NCBI GenBank assembly: GCA_963695345.1
Contig: OY968769.1
Location: 1,376,001-1,440,000, forward strand
DNA length: 64,000 bases
Direction: 5' to 3'
From: an uncultured Methanomassiliicoccales archaeon
Lineage (GTDB): Archaea; Thermoplasmatota; Thermoplasmata; Methanomassiliicoccales; UBA472
In this document: piece by piece, positions 5,139-12,039 of the stretch
Numbering within the stretch: position 1 is the first letter of the stretch
Layout of the letters: each line of letters opens with the position of its first letter
Notes under the pieces: generated by a model
Database searches by the model: none
The model's input: the letters and a program-made list of their open reading frames with translations, nothing else
What the model was told of the DNA's origin: nothing
Translations under genes and position numbers: made by a program

Positions 5139-5552
5139 TCACTTCCCTTCGGGCCGAAGGCGACCCCTAGTGCCAGCTTTCCAATGTGATGCTTCTGAAC
5201 ATCCTTCATCGCCTGGGCCCATCCCCTCCATGGCATACATCCTGTTGATCTCCACCTTGAAGTTGCCGGTCTCAATTAGCTCATTGAGATGGTCGAAGAT
5301 CTCTTGACTGGGACGGCCATCGAACGCGATCAACTTGACGCCGTCCCTTCCTTTAGGCAATGGCTCGACCCCATTCGGATAGGCGATCTTACCGCCGTTC
5401 TTGACCTGCTCCAAAACGTTGTTCAATTCGCTTCCAATTCCCGCCATCTCTCCCTGCACGAGAACTTCCCATTCCCCCACATCAGGAACGGATAGTGTCG
5501 CCGTATGCAGTTCCTATGGTCCTCCATACTTATCGATGACCACCGCTTTCAT
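5139..5552 (-). pseudogene. degraded NADP-dependent (zeta-crystallin/MDR family) oxidoreductase
   Basis: MKAVVIDKYGGP*ELHTATLSVPDVGEWEVLVQ with in-frame TAG at 5514-5516. The N-terminus is joined directly to a C-terminal segment (most of the domain is missing), and a frameshift precedes AQAMKDVQKHHIGKLAL. Confidence 0.75.
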
Positions 5553-5745
5553 CGTCCTAGGGATTCGGCTCATTACGATTCACTTCGAAGCCCATTCTCG
5601 TCTCGCTTCAACTTATTCGTTTCCCGTCGCTAACTCCTTCATGAAGCAGGTAGTCCGTTCCGACGCAAATCTGAAGGGGGATGGAACTCTTATGACGAGA
5701 TGAGAGATTATTTAACCGAAGTAGTGATAACGAGGGTTGTCCAAA

Positions 5746-5820
5746 GGGCCTGTAGGGTAGCCTGGATTATCCTTTTGGCCTTCGAAGCCAAAGACTGGGG
5801 TTCGAATCCCCACAGGTCCT
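5746..5820 (+). tRNA. tRNA-Arg (TCG)
   Basis: GGGCCTG...TTGGC-CTTCGAA-GCCAA...GGTTCGAATCC...CAGGTCC cloverleaf; TATA-like TTTAA ~30 nt upstream. Confidence 0.95.
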
Positions 5821-5844
5821 ACAGCCACTCCAGTTTTAGTTGAT

Positions 5845-6120
5845 ATGGATTCTTCTGGAATCAGTCTCAAATTCAAAATCGGGAGACCTGTAAAAATTAA
5901 ATGGGACAAAATGACTGGTTGGAGAAGGATAAAGGCCGCTGGAGTTGATTCTCGTATACATCTCTGTGTTGGCGATAGAAAAGGATATCATTTTGACAAA
6001 ATGGCCTTCAGCCAAATATCAAACCGCTATTTCGAAATTATCGGGAAACCATTGAAAGAACTTACCACCGATGATATATTGGCGATGTATCAGAGAAGTA
6101 AAGGTAAACGGGGATGTTAA
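5845..6120 (+). pseudogene. short ORF; possible remnant of an integrase N-terminal (SAM-like) domain
   Basis: YFEIIGKPLKELTTDDILAMY resembles tyrosine-recombinase core-binding helices; lies directly after the tRNA; no catalytic domain present. Confidence 0.3.
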
Positions 6121-6425
6121 TTACCTAAGTTCTTTCTTGCTCGGACAAATCACGATCGATGTTAAGGAATTCGGTTTTGTAATCATAATGATTGAATGTT
6201 GATGTTCATAGAAAAAGGAAGGTTTCTGGAGGTCCATATTCTTTCCAGGTCCTGATAAGTAAAGAATATTTTGTATTGCTATCGTCGTGATTAATTTCAA
6301 GCGAAATCGAACCGTTGTTATATCGCATTAGAAAAAAATTGAAAGGGTTCAGCTATCACCGATACGCAATATACCGCTATTAGCCCTGTTAAGCATGCAT
6401 ACTGGCTATGATCTTTGGCAGTTCA

Positions 6426-6439
6426 CCACAGGTCCGCCA
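6426..6439 (+). repeat. att-like copy of the tRNA-Arg 3' end
   Basis: CCACAGGTCC-GCCA versus tRNA CCACAGGTCC-TACA. Confidence 0.65.
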
Positions 6440-6665
6440 TTTCACCATCTGGCTTAATAACTAATGTGTAGGATAATATTGCGCATTTTCAATAAAAAAT
6501 TTCCCATTTATTTCCTACGAAATTCGCAATAGCCAGGTTATGAGAGATTCGTAATGTGAATCCCTTATTGTTCCCCTTGTTCACCAGTCTAAGATAAGGT
6601 TTCAGACTTGAATCAGGGCTTGGCTACTGCTGCATATTTTCATGCAATACTTCAGATAATCTGAG

Positions 6666-7184
6666 TCACGGTTCATATCTTATTCGAGGAGCCTCGCCGG
6701 TATTCTCCTGATATCTGTTGATCAGAGCAACAGCCGCTTCGTATGGAATAAAATAGCTCAACCAATCTTGAAATATCGTCTTGAACACGCCGTACTTAAT
6801 CCCTTTTGTTGCCTCGCCATTACCAAGTTTTACAAAATCAATGTCCCGATAGGGTATTACTATACATCTTCCGAATCTAGTTCTGACTTTGACATTATCT
6901 TGTTCCAATCTCAAGGAGTATGGATGAAATATCATCGTCGGGAGAAGGTGGCCTACAATAACAATAGGCGTCAATATGGCAAATGTCAAAAATAGTCTTT
7001 CATTTTGAAAGATAAGAAAATTCAAAGTGAAAACGACAGCGACCATTATGGAGAAGAACGTGACATAAAAAATATCATTCCATGTCAGCGGGTTCTTGAA
7101 CACTTGAACATTTCTTGAACTCACTAGAACTCCAACCGCGCCCAGACTATTCTCAGGTACTAGTTGTCCTTCCTCCCCAACCAT
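6666..7184 (-). CDS. hypothetical membrane protein (2 TM plus bacterial PH-like domain)
   Basis: AT-rich ORF; two TM helices followed by L.LEQDNVKVRTRFGR.IVIPYRDI. Confidence 0.6.
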   Translation of the reverse strand: MVGEEGQLVPENSLGAVGVLVSSRNVQVFKNPLTWNDIFYVTFFSIMVAVVFTLNFLIFQNERLFLTFAILTPIVIVGHLLPTMIFHPYSLRLEQDNVKVRTRFGRCIVIPYRDIDFVKLGNGEATKGIKYGVFKTIFQDWLSYFIPYEAAVALINRYQENTGEAPRIRYEP

Positions 7185-7442
7185 GGGCCTGAATTCGTTT
7201 CATCGATAATGCACTTTGCTTAGAAAATATGCAGATCGTGCTATGATCAATCTCCTCTCTGAAGGAATTTCACAATCGACGTCAATTGAAAAAATCCAAT
7301 TGTCATAGACAAGGTAAAAGGATTTGCGATAATCGCTGTAAATGTCATCAATTCGCAAAGCAAACTAAAATTCCATTTATATAATAAAACGATGTCAATT
7401 GATTCGAGAAATTGGGTGTATGGCAATACCTATGTGTGAACA

Positions 7443-7457
7443 CCCACAGGTCTGCCA
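7443..7457 (+). repeat. second att-like copy of the tRNA-Arg 3' end
   Basis: GAACA-CCCACAGGTCT-GCCA versus tRNA GAATC-CCCACAGGTCC. Confidence 0.6.
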
Positions 7458-7685
7458 TTAACCAAAGACAGATTATGTCATATTATGGAATATTGGTGCA
7501 TTTCCTGTCAATGCAGTCCCCTTCCGGACTCCGATCGGTATCATTCTGGACTTCAGACCGCTCAATTGATACCCCCGAGCATCTTTAGGATTTTACTGCC
7601 AGGCCTGCCTTAATGATTTGGTTAGACAGATTGGACATCGTCGAGATGGGGAATTCATCCCCTTCGCTGGAGTCATCTCTCCTGA

Positions 7686-8457
7686 CTAATCACCGATTAT
7701 CATTGCCCTAAGGATGCCAGGCCTCTCCGTGATCCTCTTTCCAGCACCAATTCCTATCTTCTGGATCGAAAATACATCGGGCAGTACATCCGATGTCTTG
7801 ATGGCAGCCACGATGGCCGCACCGGTGGGCGTGACATGTTCGCCTTCCACATCCAATATATGTAGCTTCAATCCGTGGTCTGCCGCTATGAAAGATACAG
7901 CCGGAACAGGGACGGGCAAAAGGCCGTGCTGGCAGAGCACGAATCCTTTTCCCTCATACAACTCCGGTACGATCACGTTCGTTATGCCTAGGTTATCGAT
8001 GCATACCGCAGCCGATACGATATCCACGATGGAGTCTAGAGCTCCGACCTCATGGAAATGCACCTGCTCTAATTCCACACCATGCGCTTTGGATTCCGCA
8101 TCAGCAAGAATGCGGAAAATCCGGATGGCGAGGTCTCTCGAATTGCCGGTGATGTCGGCATTATTTATGATCTCAACGATTTGAGAAAGGCTTCGATGTT
8201 CGTGGACATGCTTTTCTTTCTCATGGTATGAACTCAATCCATTTTTCTTCAGTGAATGGTCCAAGACAACATCGAAGTCACAGGAATCTAGTCCAGCTCT
8301 TAACACGCGACCGATCTTGATCTTGATAGCCGCGGACCGGTAGACTTGCCAGGCCTCTTTCCAGAACGCTCTGATCTGCTCCCAGGTCCAGGAGGGCGGC
8401 GACCGTCATATCTCCGCTTATGCCAGAATAGCATTCCAAATACAATGTCCGATCCAT
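7686..8457 (-). pseudogene. larC: nickel-pincer cofactor biosynthesis protein LarC (N-terminal half), frameshifted near 8320
   Basis: LYLECYSGISGDMTVAALLDLGA in one frame continues in another as HEHR...AESKAHG...HFHEVGALDSIVDI...TPTGAAI. Removing one base joins them. No C-terminal LarC2 half is seen. Confidence 0.85.
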
Positions 8458-8850
8458 TTCAACCCCAATCCGCATCCTGGTTTACACATTCTTGCCCATA
8501 TCGTAGGCTATTTGCATCAGGGAGGTGCCCTTGACATCATACTTCTGCCACAGACCCGACCCGTAAATGACTCCCATTTCCTTTTACCCTTCGAGACAGC
8601 AATCGGTGAAGCCTCGGAATCCCTCGAACGTCCTCTACAACGAAGCCCAATCGGCTGTACTGAAGGATGATCTGAACACTGGCCAGGTACAGGCAAAGCC
8701 GGACCTCACTCAGTGCATACTCACGTGACAAGTGCGTGAGCGGGAAGCGGATGAGATCGTCACACGAGCGAATATTTGCAGGTTCCAGCAAAATTTCAGG
8801 TTCGCCTTATTACTTACCAGAAGCGCGGACACCTTCAGATTTGCCGTGCC

Positions 8851-10711
8851 TCAGCGCTTCCCCTTCGATTTGCGCCAAACAACGATCAATCCCACCACTG
8901 CCCCGATCATCAGCAGCAACAGTATCAGGCTTAACATTGGATCCATGCCCCCGCCGGAATTCACCGTGAACGCCAGCGTCTGTACCGCGACGTTCCCGGC
9001 CTGGTCCGTGGTTCTGACCAGGAGGGTGTGCTGACCTCCGTTCAGACCGGTCATGATGATCTTACCTCCCAGGCAGGAAGTGTACTCGTTGCCGTCCACG
9101 CTGTACATCATAGAGGCTATCCCGCTGCCGTTGTCCGCCGAGCTGACCGTCACCGTCAGATGCGAGGAGTCCACCGCCATTCCGTCGATGAGGGAGATGT
9201 TCGCCGCCGGCAGGACCGAGTCCAGCTTGAACTGGAAGGTTCTCGCTCCCTCCGCATTCCCGGCCTGGTCGACGGAATAGTAGTCGAGCCGGTGGGTGCC
9301 ATCAGCGGATATCGCAAGGGTCGAAGGCGAGATCGTCCAATCTCCGCCGTCCAGACTGTAGTATGTCCCGAGGACGCCACTGATATCGTCCCTCGGATCC
9401 CAGGTGGCGATCACGGTTCCATTGTACCATCCTCCGCTCCCGACGCTTCCCGTTGTGGACAGCCCGGTGGTAGGGGCATTCAGATCGATGGAGAAGTTGA
9501 CGGTCCGCCATTGCTCCGCATTCCCGGCCCGGTCGGTGCTCCAGTATGACGAGGCTGTGGTTGCCTTCAGCGGCAACCAGTATTTTGTTCGTATAGGAGG
9601 TCCACGCGCCTGCGTCCAGCGAGTACCTGGTAATGTTGGTCCCGCTCACGATGTCCATCGATGTCAAGGCGATGCTGACCGAGCTGTTGAAATCCAGGTG
9701 TTCCACGCCCCCGGTTCCATTCAGTGTGACCAAGGTGAAAGGTGCAACCATGTCGACCTTGATCGTCTGGTTCCTTTCGGTCTCGTTGTTCCCCGCCTTG
9801 TCGATCGCCAAGTACCTAAGGGTATGGTTGCCCTGAACGGATATGCTGAAGTTCCCGAGATAGTCCGTCCACTGTCCCCCGTCAAGACATATGACAATCC
9901 TTTCTGTGCCGCTGACAGCATCCGCGGCCGTTAGGTTGACGGTTACGTTGCCCACAAACCATCCAGCCGTCCCCCTCGCTCCAAGAAGTGATGCGCTGGT
10001 CACCGGTGCGATCGTATCGATGGTGAATTGAACGGTCCTTTCAACTTCCCAGTTGCCCGCCAGATCGGTACTGTTGAACCTCAAATAATGCAAGCCCTGC
10101 GTCGAAACGATGAAGGGACCTGAGTACCAGTCGAAGGGACCTCCGTCCACCGAATAACGTACTTCAGTAACTCCCTCCATCACATCCTGGGATTCCAGGA
10201 TCACCCCGACGGAGCTGGCGAAAATACTGGTACCCTCGATATATTTGCCGGCCAGGACGTAGCTGGTGACCGGGACCGTCTTGTCGATGTTGATGTTAAC
10301 GCTCTGCTCCAGCTCCCTGTTCCCGGCCCAGTCGGTGGCGGAGAACCAAAGGATATTAGATCCTTCGGATGAGATCGAGAAATTGCCCGTATAGATCTGC
10401 CACATCCCCAATCCCAGACCATACTCGATCGTCTTGACGCCGCTCATCTGGTCTACCGCAGTGAGGTTCACGGTCACATCGCTCGAGAACCAGCCAATAC
10501 CGTAGGCACCGCTCAATGTGGGCGTCGTCACGGGCGCCTCCTCATCGGCGACCGCGACACTGGTGAGGATAGGCTCCATATTGGACCGGATGTCGGCGCC
10601 GTCCGGATTCGCCAGGAACGGTGCTCCCATGGCCGGTGTCAGGTTGAGGCCACTCAAAACGGTAACTATTATCAATGCACACACAAGAAACGCGGCGGAC
10701 CGATGTTTCAT
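8851..10711 (-). CDS. membrane-anchored surface protein with ~6 Ig-like (OmpL47/chitobiase-type) repeats; frameshift near 9550
   Basis: Signal peptide; repeated D..SGV....Y.lDgg.W..Y......G.H.l.y...D.AGN.E units; C-terminal TM plus basic tail. Split over ORFs 9302..10711 and 8851..9576. Confidence 0.85.
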
Positions 10712-10807
10712 CTGATCGGAGTTCCAACATCATTGTCGATGATAATGGTATTGTGAATCCTTCGTGAAGTGATTTTTTTAAATAATGAGAAATCCAAGAT
10801 ACATGCC

Positions 10808-11254
10808 ATGTTGGATGGGCCCCATCCAGTTGGGATGACCGTCGTCGGATTCCTGTATTTCATTGTCGGCATATTGGAATTCTTCGCCGGAATTGGATTG
10901 GTTCTCCTTGCTGGCCTAGGCCAGTCGGACATCATCAGCAACGTTGGTCAGAATGCGCAGGATTGGCTGAAGAATAATTCGATGCTCGTCCTCGTCATGG
11001 GTTTGGCGACTCTTGCGGTGGCGATAATCGATCTGGCCATAGGATATGGATGCTTCAAAGGCTGGGGTTGGGTCTGGACCGCTGGGATGGCCTTCGCTTT
11101 CATATCACTGGTCCTCTCGCTATTCGTGGCCTGGTCCAGGGGGTTCACGCTCTCCGATACGGCGTCCGGACTGGTCGGGTCTATCATAACGATTTTCATC
11201 ATTCTGTACCTCAACACCAGAAAGGTCCGGATCTGGTTCGGAAAATCTGAGTGA
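10808..11254 (+). CDS. hypothetical 4-TM membrane protein
   Basis: P.GMTVVG start, GYG.FKG.GW.W, C-terminal YL...KVR.WF pattern. Confidence 0.75.
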   Translation: MLDGPHPVGMTVVGFLYFIVGILEFFAGIGLVLLAGLGQSDIISNVGQNAQDWLKNNSMLVLVMGLATLAVAIIDLAIGYGCFKGWGWVWTAGMAFAFISLVLSLFVAWSRGFTLSDTASGLVGSIITIFIILYLNTRKVRIWFGKSE

Positions 11255-11313
11255 ACGCCGGCTATTGTGAATTAAATGGTCAGCTTGATAACCGACCACC
11301 TCGCTGCAGCGTT

Positions 11314-12039
11314 ATGCGTCATTTCTTCCTCTTCTTGGTCATCGGGGCAGCCCTTCTGATCGTAGTGCCATCGGTCATGCTGTTGTCGATACCTCCCGAA
11401 TCCAGGAGCGACGGGCTTTACCAGGTAGGATCGTACGACTCATTGCTGGGAGGCGATTATGCCGCCCGGTCAGAGGTTAGCGCCCTGATGGAGAATGGTG
11501 ATCTCGGCTTAGGAACCTACACTGGATTGGACGGTGAGATGATCGTGTTGGACGGCATTTGCTATAAGGCGACGGTGGACGGCAAGGTCACTCAAGCCAA
11601 CGACAGCGCCGCCACCCCCTTTGCCCAGGTCACGTACTTCGATCAGGAAGAATATATCAATGTCACCGGAACTCAGAACCTCACCGAGCTGGAGGCATCC
11701 TTGATGTCTGGATTCGCCAGGGAGGACGCCTTCGTTTTCATCAGGATCGATGGCACGTTCACGGAGATGAAGGTCCGAAGCGTGCCGGCACAGTCAGAGC
11801 CCTATCCGCCTCTGGTGGATGTGGTCCAGGAACAGGTGGTGTTCGACCACCGGGACATCTCCGGCACATTGATCGGTCTTTGGAGCCCAAGTTATGCTGG
11901 CACGCTCTCGTACTCCGGTTTCCATTTCCATTTCATCAGTGACGACCGGAGCAAAGGCGGGCACGTGCTCGGTTTTGAGGCGGAAGGCGTTTCCGCCGCC
12001 CTCGATTACACCGACGGCCTGCAGGCAATTCTCAGTTGA
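11314..12039 (+). CDS. budA: alpha-acetolactate decarboxylase with N-terminal membrane anchor/signal
   Basis: GDLGLGT..GLDGEMIVLDG, TPFAQVT, G.HFHFISDDR..GGHVL zinc-binding motif. Confidence 0.9.
   Translation: MRHFFLFLVIGAALLIVVPSVMLLSIPPESRSDGLYQVGSYDSLLGGDYAARSEVSALMENGDLGLGTYTGLDGEMIVLDGICYKATVDGKVTQANDSAATPFAQVTYFDQEEYINVTGTQNLTELEASLMSGFAREDAFVFIRIDGTFTEMKVRSVPAQSEPYPPLVDVVQEQVVFDHRDISGTLIGLWSPSYAGTLSYSGFHFHFISDDRSKGGHVLGFEAEGVSAALDYTDGLQAILS

Follow-up and report, generated by a model that had tools for sequence, protein, structure and literature searches.

The window analysed here is a stretch of 64,000 nucleotides from the genome of an uncultured Methanomassiliicoccales archaeon (assembly GCA_963695345.1, contig OY968769.1, positions 1,376,001 to 1,440,000), and our subject is a locus near its start, where a tRNA-Arg(TCG) gene is followed by two copies of the tRNA 3' end, r1 and r2. 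These copies close two short stretches of DNA, module 1 (5821-6425) and module 2 (6440-7442), beyond which lies a larC gene. A preliminary description had offered two readings of this arrangement, either decayed islands accreted in tandem or tiny cassettes in an integron-like array, moved in trans. It had singled out the locus as the most promising place in the window for a system not yet described. The genome carries mcrA, which marks the host as a methanogen-type archaeon, and consists of a single contig of 2,561,992 bases with a guanine-plus-cytosine (GC) content of 0.56. We compared this source genome (G000) with seven congeners and 13 further genomes of the family, and drew on 261 genomes of the order and on a sample of 401 from the class. 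The features at the locus are collected in Table 1.

Table 1. Features at the tRNA-Arg(TCG) locus, in positions of the window
Feature	Position	Strand	Remarks
tRNA-Arg(TCG), integration target (attB/attL)	5745..5820	+	ARAGORN 5745-5822; Rfam RF00005 5746-5820, 56.3 bits
Module 1 cargo remnant: C-terminal 99 codons and stop of a small membrane-protein gene	5821..6120	+	identity to P0002
Trace of the last integrase codons, CTGGCTAT (coding 'GY')	6402..6409	+	24 nt before r1 core; G003 has ACTGGCTAT at equal distance
r1, displaced tRNA 3' end (attR-type junction), closes module 1	6419..6439	+	17/21 against CGAATCCCCACAGGTCCGCCA, final 14 exact
Host-type flank ATTTCACCATCTGGCT after r1	6439..6454	+	16/16 identical to flank of intact tRNA in G004
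Module 2 cargo: 172-amino-acid membrane-protein open reading frame (orf172)	6666..7184	-	found only in G000
r2, second, more diverged displaced tRNA 3' end	7437..7457	+	17/21 against the 21-nt core; C72 = T; closes low-GC DNA
larC, N-terminal nickel-insertion domain form, native flank, frameshifted	7686..8475	-	PF01969 on two overlapping frames

The tRNA-Arg(TCG) gene and the copies of its 3' end

The tRNA-Arg gene of the window ends in CCCACAGGTCC-TACA, as the preliminary description had read it and as ARAGORN, Rfam and the sequence itself agree. The 3' strand of the acceptor stem stops at 5819, position 73 is a T, and CCA is not encoded. In all seven congeners the gene ends in CCACAGGTCC-GCC(A/T), with GCCA in six and GCCT in one. 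The acceptor stem is followed by a G in each of the 13 further family genomes, and GCCA is complete in 10 of the 12 whose sequence extends far enough. The native gene end is therefore G73-CCA, which makes r1 and r2 displaced 3' ends of the native type and the gene in the window the altered one. An encoded CCA is dispensable in this genome, since it was absent near the ends of 14 of the 34 tRNA genes called by ARAGORN (a crude script check). No second tRNA-Arg(TCG) was found among these 34 calls, a list that is incomplete for an archaeon, and so a deletion would probably have had to leave the acceptor stem untouched in order to persist.

Both downstream copies, CCACAGGTCCGCCA at 6426-6439 (r1) and CCACAGGTCTGCCA at 7444-7457 (r2), lie on the + strand and carry the G and CCA that are missing from the tRNA gene, which bears out what the preliminary description had seen. 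The tRNA end at 5810-5819 recurs at 6426-6435 and 7444-7452 as a direct repeat, and the 9-mer CCACAGGTC occurs three times in the window against 0.71 expected, a count of at least three that was reached by 4 of 100 shuffles. The exact match of r1 and r2 to the tRNA of the window spans 9-10 nt only. So short a core would suit a chance resemblance, or terminator or promoter parts of minus-strand genes unlinked to integration, and so would the whole-genome counts of the degenerate 14-mer with at most one mismatch, which are alike for the pattern and for its reversed control (five matches against 2+2 = 4). The motif AATATTG(C/GT)GCATTT, which the preliminary description had taken as shared by the DNA following both copies, is likewise not significant; no extended homology of the r1 and r2 flanks was detected, since 168 of 2000 shuffles and 35 of 1411 other tiles of the window attained the local alignment score of the two 90-nt right flanks. 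Against such an explanation, r1 and r2 are the only exact 14-mers in the whole genome, both include the native G73-CCA, and both stand on the strand of the tRNA and at most 1.7 kb downstream of it, where about 0.04 would be expected genome-wide by our own arithmetic. They also coincide with boundaries in GC content and with the attR architecture of the closest relative, described below. The two copies are not chance matches, and we give next to no credence to an origin unlinked to integration.

Rfam returned no tRNA match at E ≤ 1 besides 5746-5820 that would indicate a second, decayed tRNA gene at r2. The r2 copy lies within an imperfect palindrome at 7415-7463 (ATGGCA..ACCT.TGTG / CACAGGT.TGCCAT), for which the DNA fold of the minus strand had a z-score of -2.0, a value reached by 3 of 200 shuffles. 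The r1 copy has no counterpart to this palindrome, which may be left over from inverted core-type binding sites.

The occupied site in the closest relative and its integrase family

In the closest relative, G003, with 83% identity in the AIR-synthase-like gene upstream of the tRNA, the counterparts of this tRNA and of larC are separated by an insert of about 11 kb. This insert is bounded by an exact direct repeat of 21 nt, CGAATCCCCACAGGTCCGCCA, at 334-354 and 11418-11438 of the fetched locus (L018). An open reading frame (ORF) of 437 amino acids at 10102-11415 encodes a tyrosine integrase (PF00589, E 6.7e-10; phrog_1, E 1.3e-20), its stop codon standing 3 nt ahead of the second repeat copy, and about 110 nt past that copy an intact larC ORF of 264 amino acids follows on the opposite strand. 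The site in G003 is a textbook attL-element-int-attR arrangement. Among PHROGs, the element matched the integrase and one family of unknown function, and nothing else could be named on it.

Relatives of the G003 integrase were found in 95 of the 261 genomes of the order (E ≤ 1e-20), and none of these 95 is G000. In the family of this integrase the stop codon precedes the attachment (att) site. Inspection of 30 fetched family loci, made by reading and not by a formal count, found tRNA-end sequence after the integrase frame in most of them, in either orientation, and a crude T-loop pattern matched 13 of the 30. Of the 30 integrase frames, 25 carried the motif CTGGNTAY (codons ...GY..) within 20 nt of their end. 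Its single occurrence on the + strand of 5701-7700 in the window, against a genome background of 0.117 per kb per strand, is CTGGCTAT, 24 nt before r1. Given that this is the motif of the 3' end of the family, the final codons of an integrase gene that has otherwise disappeared stand ahead of r1. The same test failed before r2; there TATGTGTGA at 7431-7439 resembles by eye the stop region of another family locus, L067, and might possibly be a decayed integrase stop region.

The preliminary description had suggested that an intact integrase be sought elsewhere in the genome. A six-frame scan of all of G000 with a hidden Markov model (HMM) of the G003 family returned fragments only, and the genome is without an intact cognate integrase. 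At G000:C1:2,430,903-2,431,738 on the - strand there are two adjoining pieces, which cover profile positions 95-206 and 205-344. A further two, both small, are found at G000:C1:1,885,451-1,885,963 on the + strand, and two more matches were weak (near E 3e-4). Both sets of fragments adjoin tRNA genes, namely a tRNA-like call at 2430787-2430884 and a tRNA-Pro at 1886214-1886291. G000 thus seems to have lost all intact integrases of this family.

In G007, a locus designated L050 carries a 65%-identical integrase (G007:C1, about 2129866-2131155) with one in-frame TAG that ends beside a tRNA-Glu-type 3' end, and the flank after it resembles, by eye, the element arm that follows tRNA-Arg in G003, G002 and G007. 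The junction would be attP-like, a hint that tandem arrays occur at other tRNA genes too.

Composition and contents of the modules and the native flank

The two modules are foreign in composition. Their GC contents are 0.379 (module 1) and 0.382 (module 2), against 0.56 for the genome, 0.50 for larC and 0.46 for the spacer between r2 and larC, so that GC climbs from 0.38 to 0.46-0.50 just past r2. None of the seven congeners has module DNA after its tRNA. Searches of phage and plasmid DNA with 5821-7460 gave no match, and the modules had no relatives in phage, plasmid, viral, metagenome and genome collections as far as these are searchable, near-identical records possibly being omitted there.

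Module 1 begins within a gene. A protein of 192 amino acids, P0002, encoded on one Logan contig of 2,182 nt, agrees at every residue from 94 to 192 with the translation of window 5821-6117 (100% identity), while its residues 1-93 were not found in G000; since the match starts at residue 94, which corresponds to 5821, the end of the tRNA is the exact point at which the module 1 gene is truncated. An exhaustive HMMER search with the module 1 ORF found seven proteins at E ≤ 1e-3, P0002 and six of 116-158 amino acids, and the window ORF aligns only with the C-terminal part of these shorter homologues. In our own reading, the proteins of this family have two hydrophobic segments followed by a C-terminal soluble domain. 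No Pfam or PHROG match was obtained for the module 1 ORF, nor did the P0002 protein match metagenome or viral contigs or a 30-nt string of the window match metagenome or genome contigs. The frame at 5845-6120 (orf91) was matched in 2 of the 261 genomes of the order, G000 itself counted. The preliminary description had taken this frame for an integrase-like remnant; it matches neither Pfam nor the local integrase family, and what it encodes is the C-terminal portion of a small membrane protein. Small membrane proteins of this type (about 150 amino acids) are sparse, a profile of them having matched 5 of the 401 genomes of the class, again with G000 counted.

Across the break, P0002 reads ...IIIQEI-TATP..., a stretch in which, by our translation, the core CCACAGGTCC is not represented in any of its three frames. 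The att site was therefore not inside the cargo gene, and a split-gene model of the SSV (Sulfolobus spindle-shaped virus) type does not apply. In archaeal integrases of that type the gene is split by integration, with attP inside the gene and int(N) and int(C) flanking the provirus. The locus shares with these systems an archaeal element at a tRNA-Arg gene and an open frame that runs on from the tRNA end. We rule out a provirus with a split integrase gene; the ORF beside the tRNA belongs to the small membrane-protein family, and the integrase stop precedes the att site.

In module 2, the membrane-protein gene that the preliminary description had listed does stand, as orf172. Among 5.8 billion clusters it found only itself. 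Its comparison with the module 1 family gave an hhalign probability of 11% (E 0.0027) and an HMM score of 11.3 bits, and a chromosomal paralogue shared by both module proteins (G000:C1:212330-212779; blastp, 31.6 bits) links them weakly. These similarities do no more than suggest that orf172 is distantly related to the proteins of module 1 type.

Beyond r2, homology between the window and G003 resumes at 7696, in the stop region of larC, and extends to about 8647 at 82% identity. Consequently, larC and its upstream sequence are native flank, in synteny with G003 beyond attR, and not the gene of a third module as had been proposed. The weaker copy at 8548 that would have closed such a module is not a boundary; this motif, CCACAGACCCG, lies inside a conserved stretch that is about 80% identical to G003, where CCATAAGCCCG is found instead, and as we read it the motif codes, on the minus strand, for a conserved GLWQ.

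Three further observations concern this flank. In the window, larC is split into overlapping frames of 65 and 206 amino acids, with one extra base near 8327 relative to G003; a pseudogene, a programmed frameshift and a sequencing error are all conceivable explanations of the split. Upstream of larC, window 8476-8650 shares about 80% identity with G003, in which this sequence makes up the 3' part of an 81-amino-acid ORF (L018 12347-12592, minus strand), and the matching frame in the window carries an in-frame TAA in our reading. Farther out, genes for surface proteins with Big_13 immunoglobulin-like domains (8851-9576 and 9302-10711, minus strand) contain direct repeats at 8990-9840, about 264 nt in period, that look like ordinary domain repeats.

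The contents of the modules bear directly on whether they could still be mobile units, that is, integrase-less mini-cassettes resembling cis-mobilisable elements (CIMEs) that an integrase of the same family, brought in cis or in trans by an incoming element, could excise, shuffle or carry. Directly oriented copies of the tRNA end bound each unit, related integrases are frequent in the order, and att-flanked remnants that can be mobilised in cis are known in bacteria (PMC5704250). If the units were mobile, the tRNA-Arg site would be a small gene-capture array in methanogenic archaea. However, the copies are degenerate (9-10 exact nucleotides shared with the tRNA, 17 of 21 with the full core), module 1 starts within a truncated gene, no further copies of the units were found in the genome or the searched collections, and the genome holds integrase fragments only. 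Nor did r1 show an attC-like hairpin, its fold being no better than those of shuffles (z 0.72, 1.02). We therefore consider mobile units very improbable.

The integron-like array mobilised in trans, and with it the undescribed system, likewise fails on the presence of two copies only, on their degeneracy, on the truncated gene, on the absence of any integrase but fragments and on the native origin of the presumed third module. The likeness to integron arrays is superficial and consists in short single-gene units split by a recurring short sequence. In contrast to integrons, the locus has no intI, attI or Pc, no folded site of the attC type at r1, and two units with none elsewhere in the genome, and its genes are opposed, with orf91 on the + strand and orf172 and larC on the - strand.

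Probable repeated integration followed by decay

We conclude that the locus is most likely a tandem scar of two decayed tRNA-targeting elements after tRNA-Arg(TCG), produced by accretion and then deletion. Of the two readings in the preliminary description, the tandem accretion of decayed islands is supported by the G003 site, by the low GC of the modules and by the integrase 3'-end trace before r1. The pattern is ordinary and already known in kind, and a cassette system is not supported. That there were two separate integrations, the order in which they occurred and deletion as the route to the present size are what we infer from these observations.

In the history that we propose, tRNA-Arg(TCG) would have served archaeal tyrosine-integrase elements of one family as an attachment site. 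The integrase gene of this family ends right at att, and the site would have been used at least twice in the lineage of G000. Each integration would have pushed the then-current tRNA 3' end (CCACAGGTCC-GCCA with its flank) to the far side of the incoming DNA, with r1 (6426) and r2 (7444) left as tandem attR-type junctions. Deletion would have removed nearly all of both elements, integrase genes included, and what remains is 0.6 kb and 1.0 kb of 38%-GC DNA with one truncated and one orphan small-membrane-protein gene. From about 7500 onward, larC included, the DNA is native chromosome.

The tRNA has not been restored by an att copy of the element, and T73-ACA now stands where relatives have G73-CCA. 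This altered 3' end, the junction of which falls within the truncated cargo gene, is a secondary deletion. A single deletion, from position 73 into the cargo gene, would have joined tRNA position 72/73 to the middle of that gene and would be the reason why the tRNA reads T-ACA in place of G-CCA.

Several observations weigh against this history. No integrase coding sequence was found in 5700-7700, either with Pfam, by tblastn with the G003 integrase or with an HMM of 24 family members, which returned six-frame fragments at E > 4 only; the integrase trace amounts to 8-9 nt at r1 (6401-6409), and its motif failed at r2. The left junction of module 1 cuts a gene and is not a clean att crossover, so at least one illegitimate deletion must be assumed. 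Four public contigs of 151 nt (three runs of one freshwater-sediment study) matched 5400-7900, and none of them spans a junction.

The flank of r1 is a further difficulty. Its 16 nt ATTTCACCATCTGGCT have the host type, matching at 16 of 16 positions the flank of the intact tRNA in the relative G004, in which normal-GC ORFs of chromosomal type follow the tRNA directly. Similar flanks are present in G001 and next to attR in G003. By eye, every tRNA-Arg flank in the genus, whether native or carried by an element, has a pyrimidine-rich tract that ends in ATC(C/T)(A/G)G(C/T)T. Strict accretion puts the native flank at the outermost copy, r2, while here a host-type flank stands at the middle copy. 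Accretion therefore requires that the attP of the older element reached about 16 nt past the CCA, or that module 2 came by another route, and either may have been the case.

The flank of r1, unpredicted for a middle copy under strict accretion, argues for a single integration, in which 5821-7457 would be one element with r2 as its attR, and r1 with its host-like flank would have come inside the element or by later rearrangement, for example as host DNA gained by imprecise excision from a G004-like host. The near-equal GC contents of the modules and the possibility that both encode related small membrane proteins point the same way. On the other hand, the integrase 3'-end motif stands before r1 at the distance typical of the family, which marks the end of an element (attR) and not an internal passenger, and an element that keeps an intact internal att copy is not normally expected. 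We regard a single integration as unlikely, and two integrations followed by deletion as the better account of the locus.

Accretion of this kind has precedents. Successive integrations at tRNA sites, with partial tRNAs between the elements and degenerated remnants, are described in one study (bioRxiv 10.1101/2020.12.28.424599), and arrays formed when tyrosine-recombinase elements re-use one site are reported for archaea and bacteria in another (PMC6563490). With these arrays of islands at tRNA genes, represented by the Prochlorococcus tycheposons and the archaeal integrated mobile genetic elements, the locus shares the 3' part of a tRNA as target, partial tRNA copies between elements, the outward displacement of older elements by newer ones, and degenerated remnants with fragmentary integrases (bioRxiv 10.1101/2020.12.28.424599, PMC6563490). 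In contrast to them, decay is extreme here (0.6 and 1.0 kb), integrase coding sequence is lacking, the tRNA gene itself is without an encoded G73-CCA, and the host is methanogenic.

Deletion to att-flanked CIMEs, followed by accretion, is set out in a further source, and the locus shares with such accretion-deletion of the ICESt1 type the integrase-less remnants with flanking att copies, in tandem at one site (PMC5704250). CIMEs are, however, defined in conjugative bacterial systems, whereas this locus gave no sign of mobility, and it has degenerate att copies and a boundary that falls inside a gene. The TIGER/Islander software resolves tandem arrays and leaves out islands shorter than 2 kb and islands without an integrase (PMC12424338); remnants such as the modules closed by r1 and r2 would therefore go uncatalogued.

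The locus is thus a worked negative, in which an apparent array of tiny cassettes is accounted for by repeated integration at one tRNA gene and by deletion. It documents a family of tRNA-targeting integrases in an order of methanogens, with the integrase stop codon abutting the att site, and it indicates the extent to which elements may decay while their att scars persist. It also provides a case of a tRNA-Arg(UCG) gene, the sole one that ARAGORN found in the genome, which would have been stripped of its encoded discriminator G and CCA by the decay of an element.

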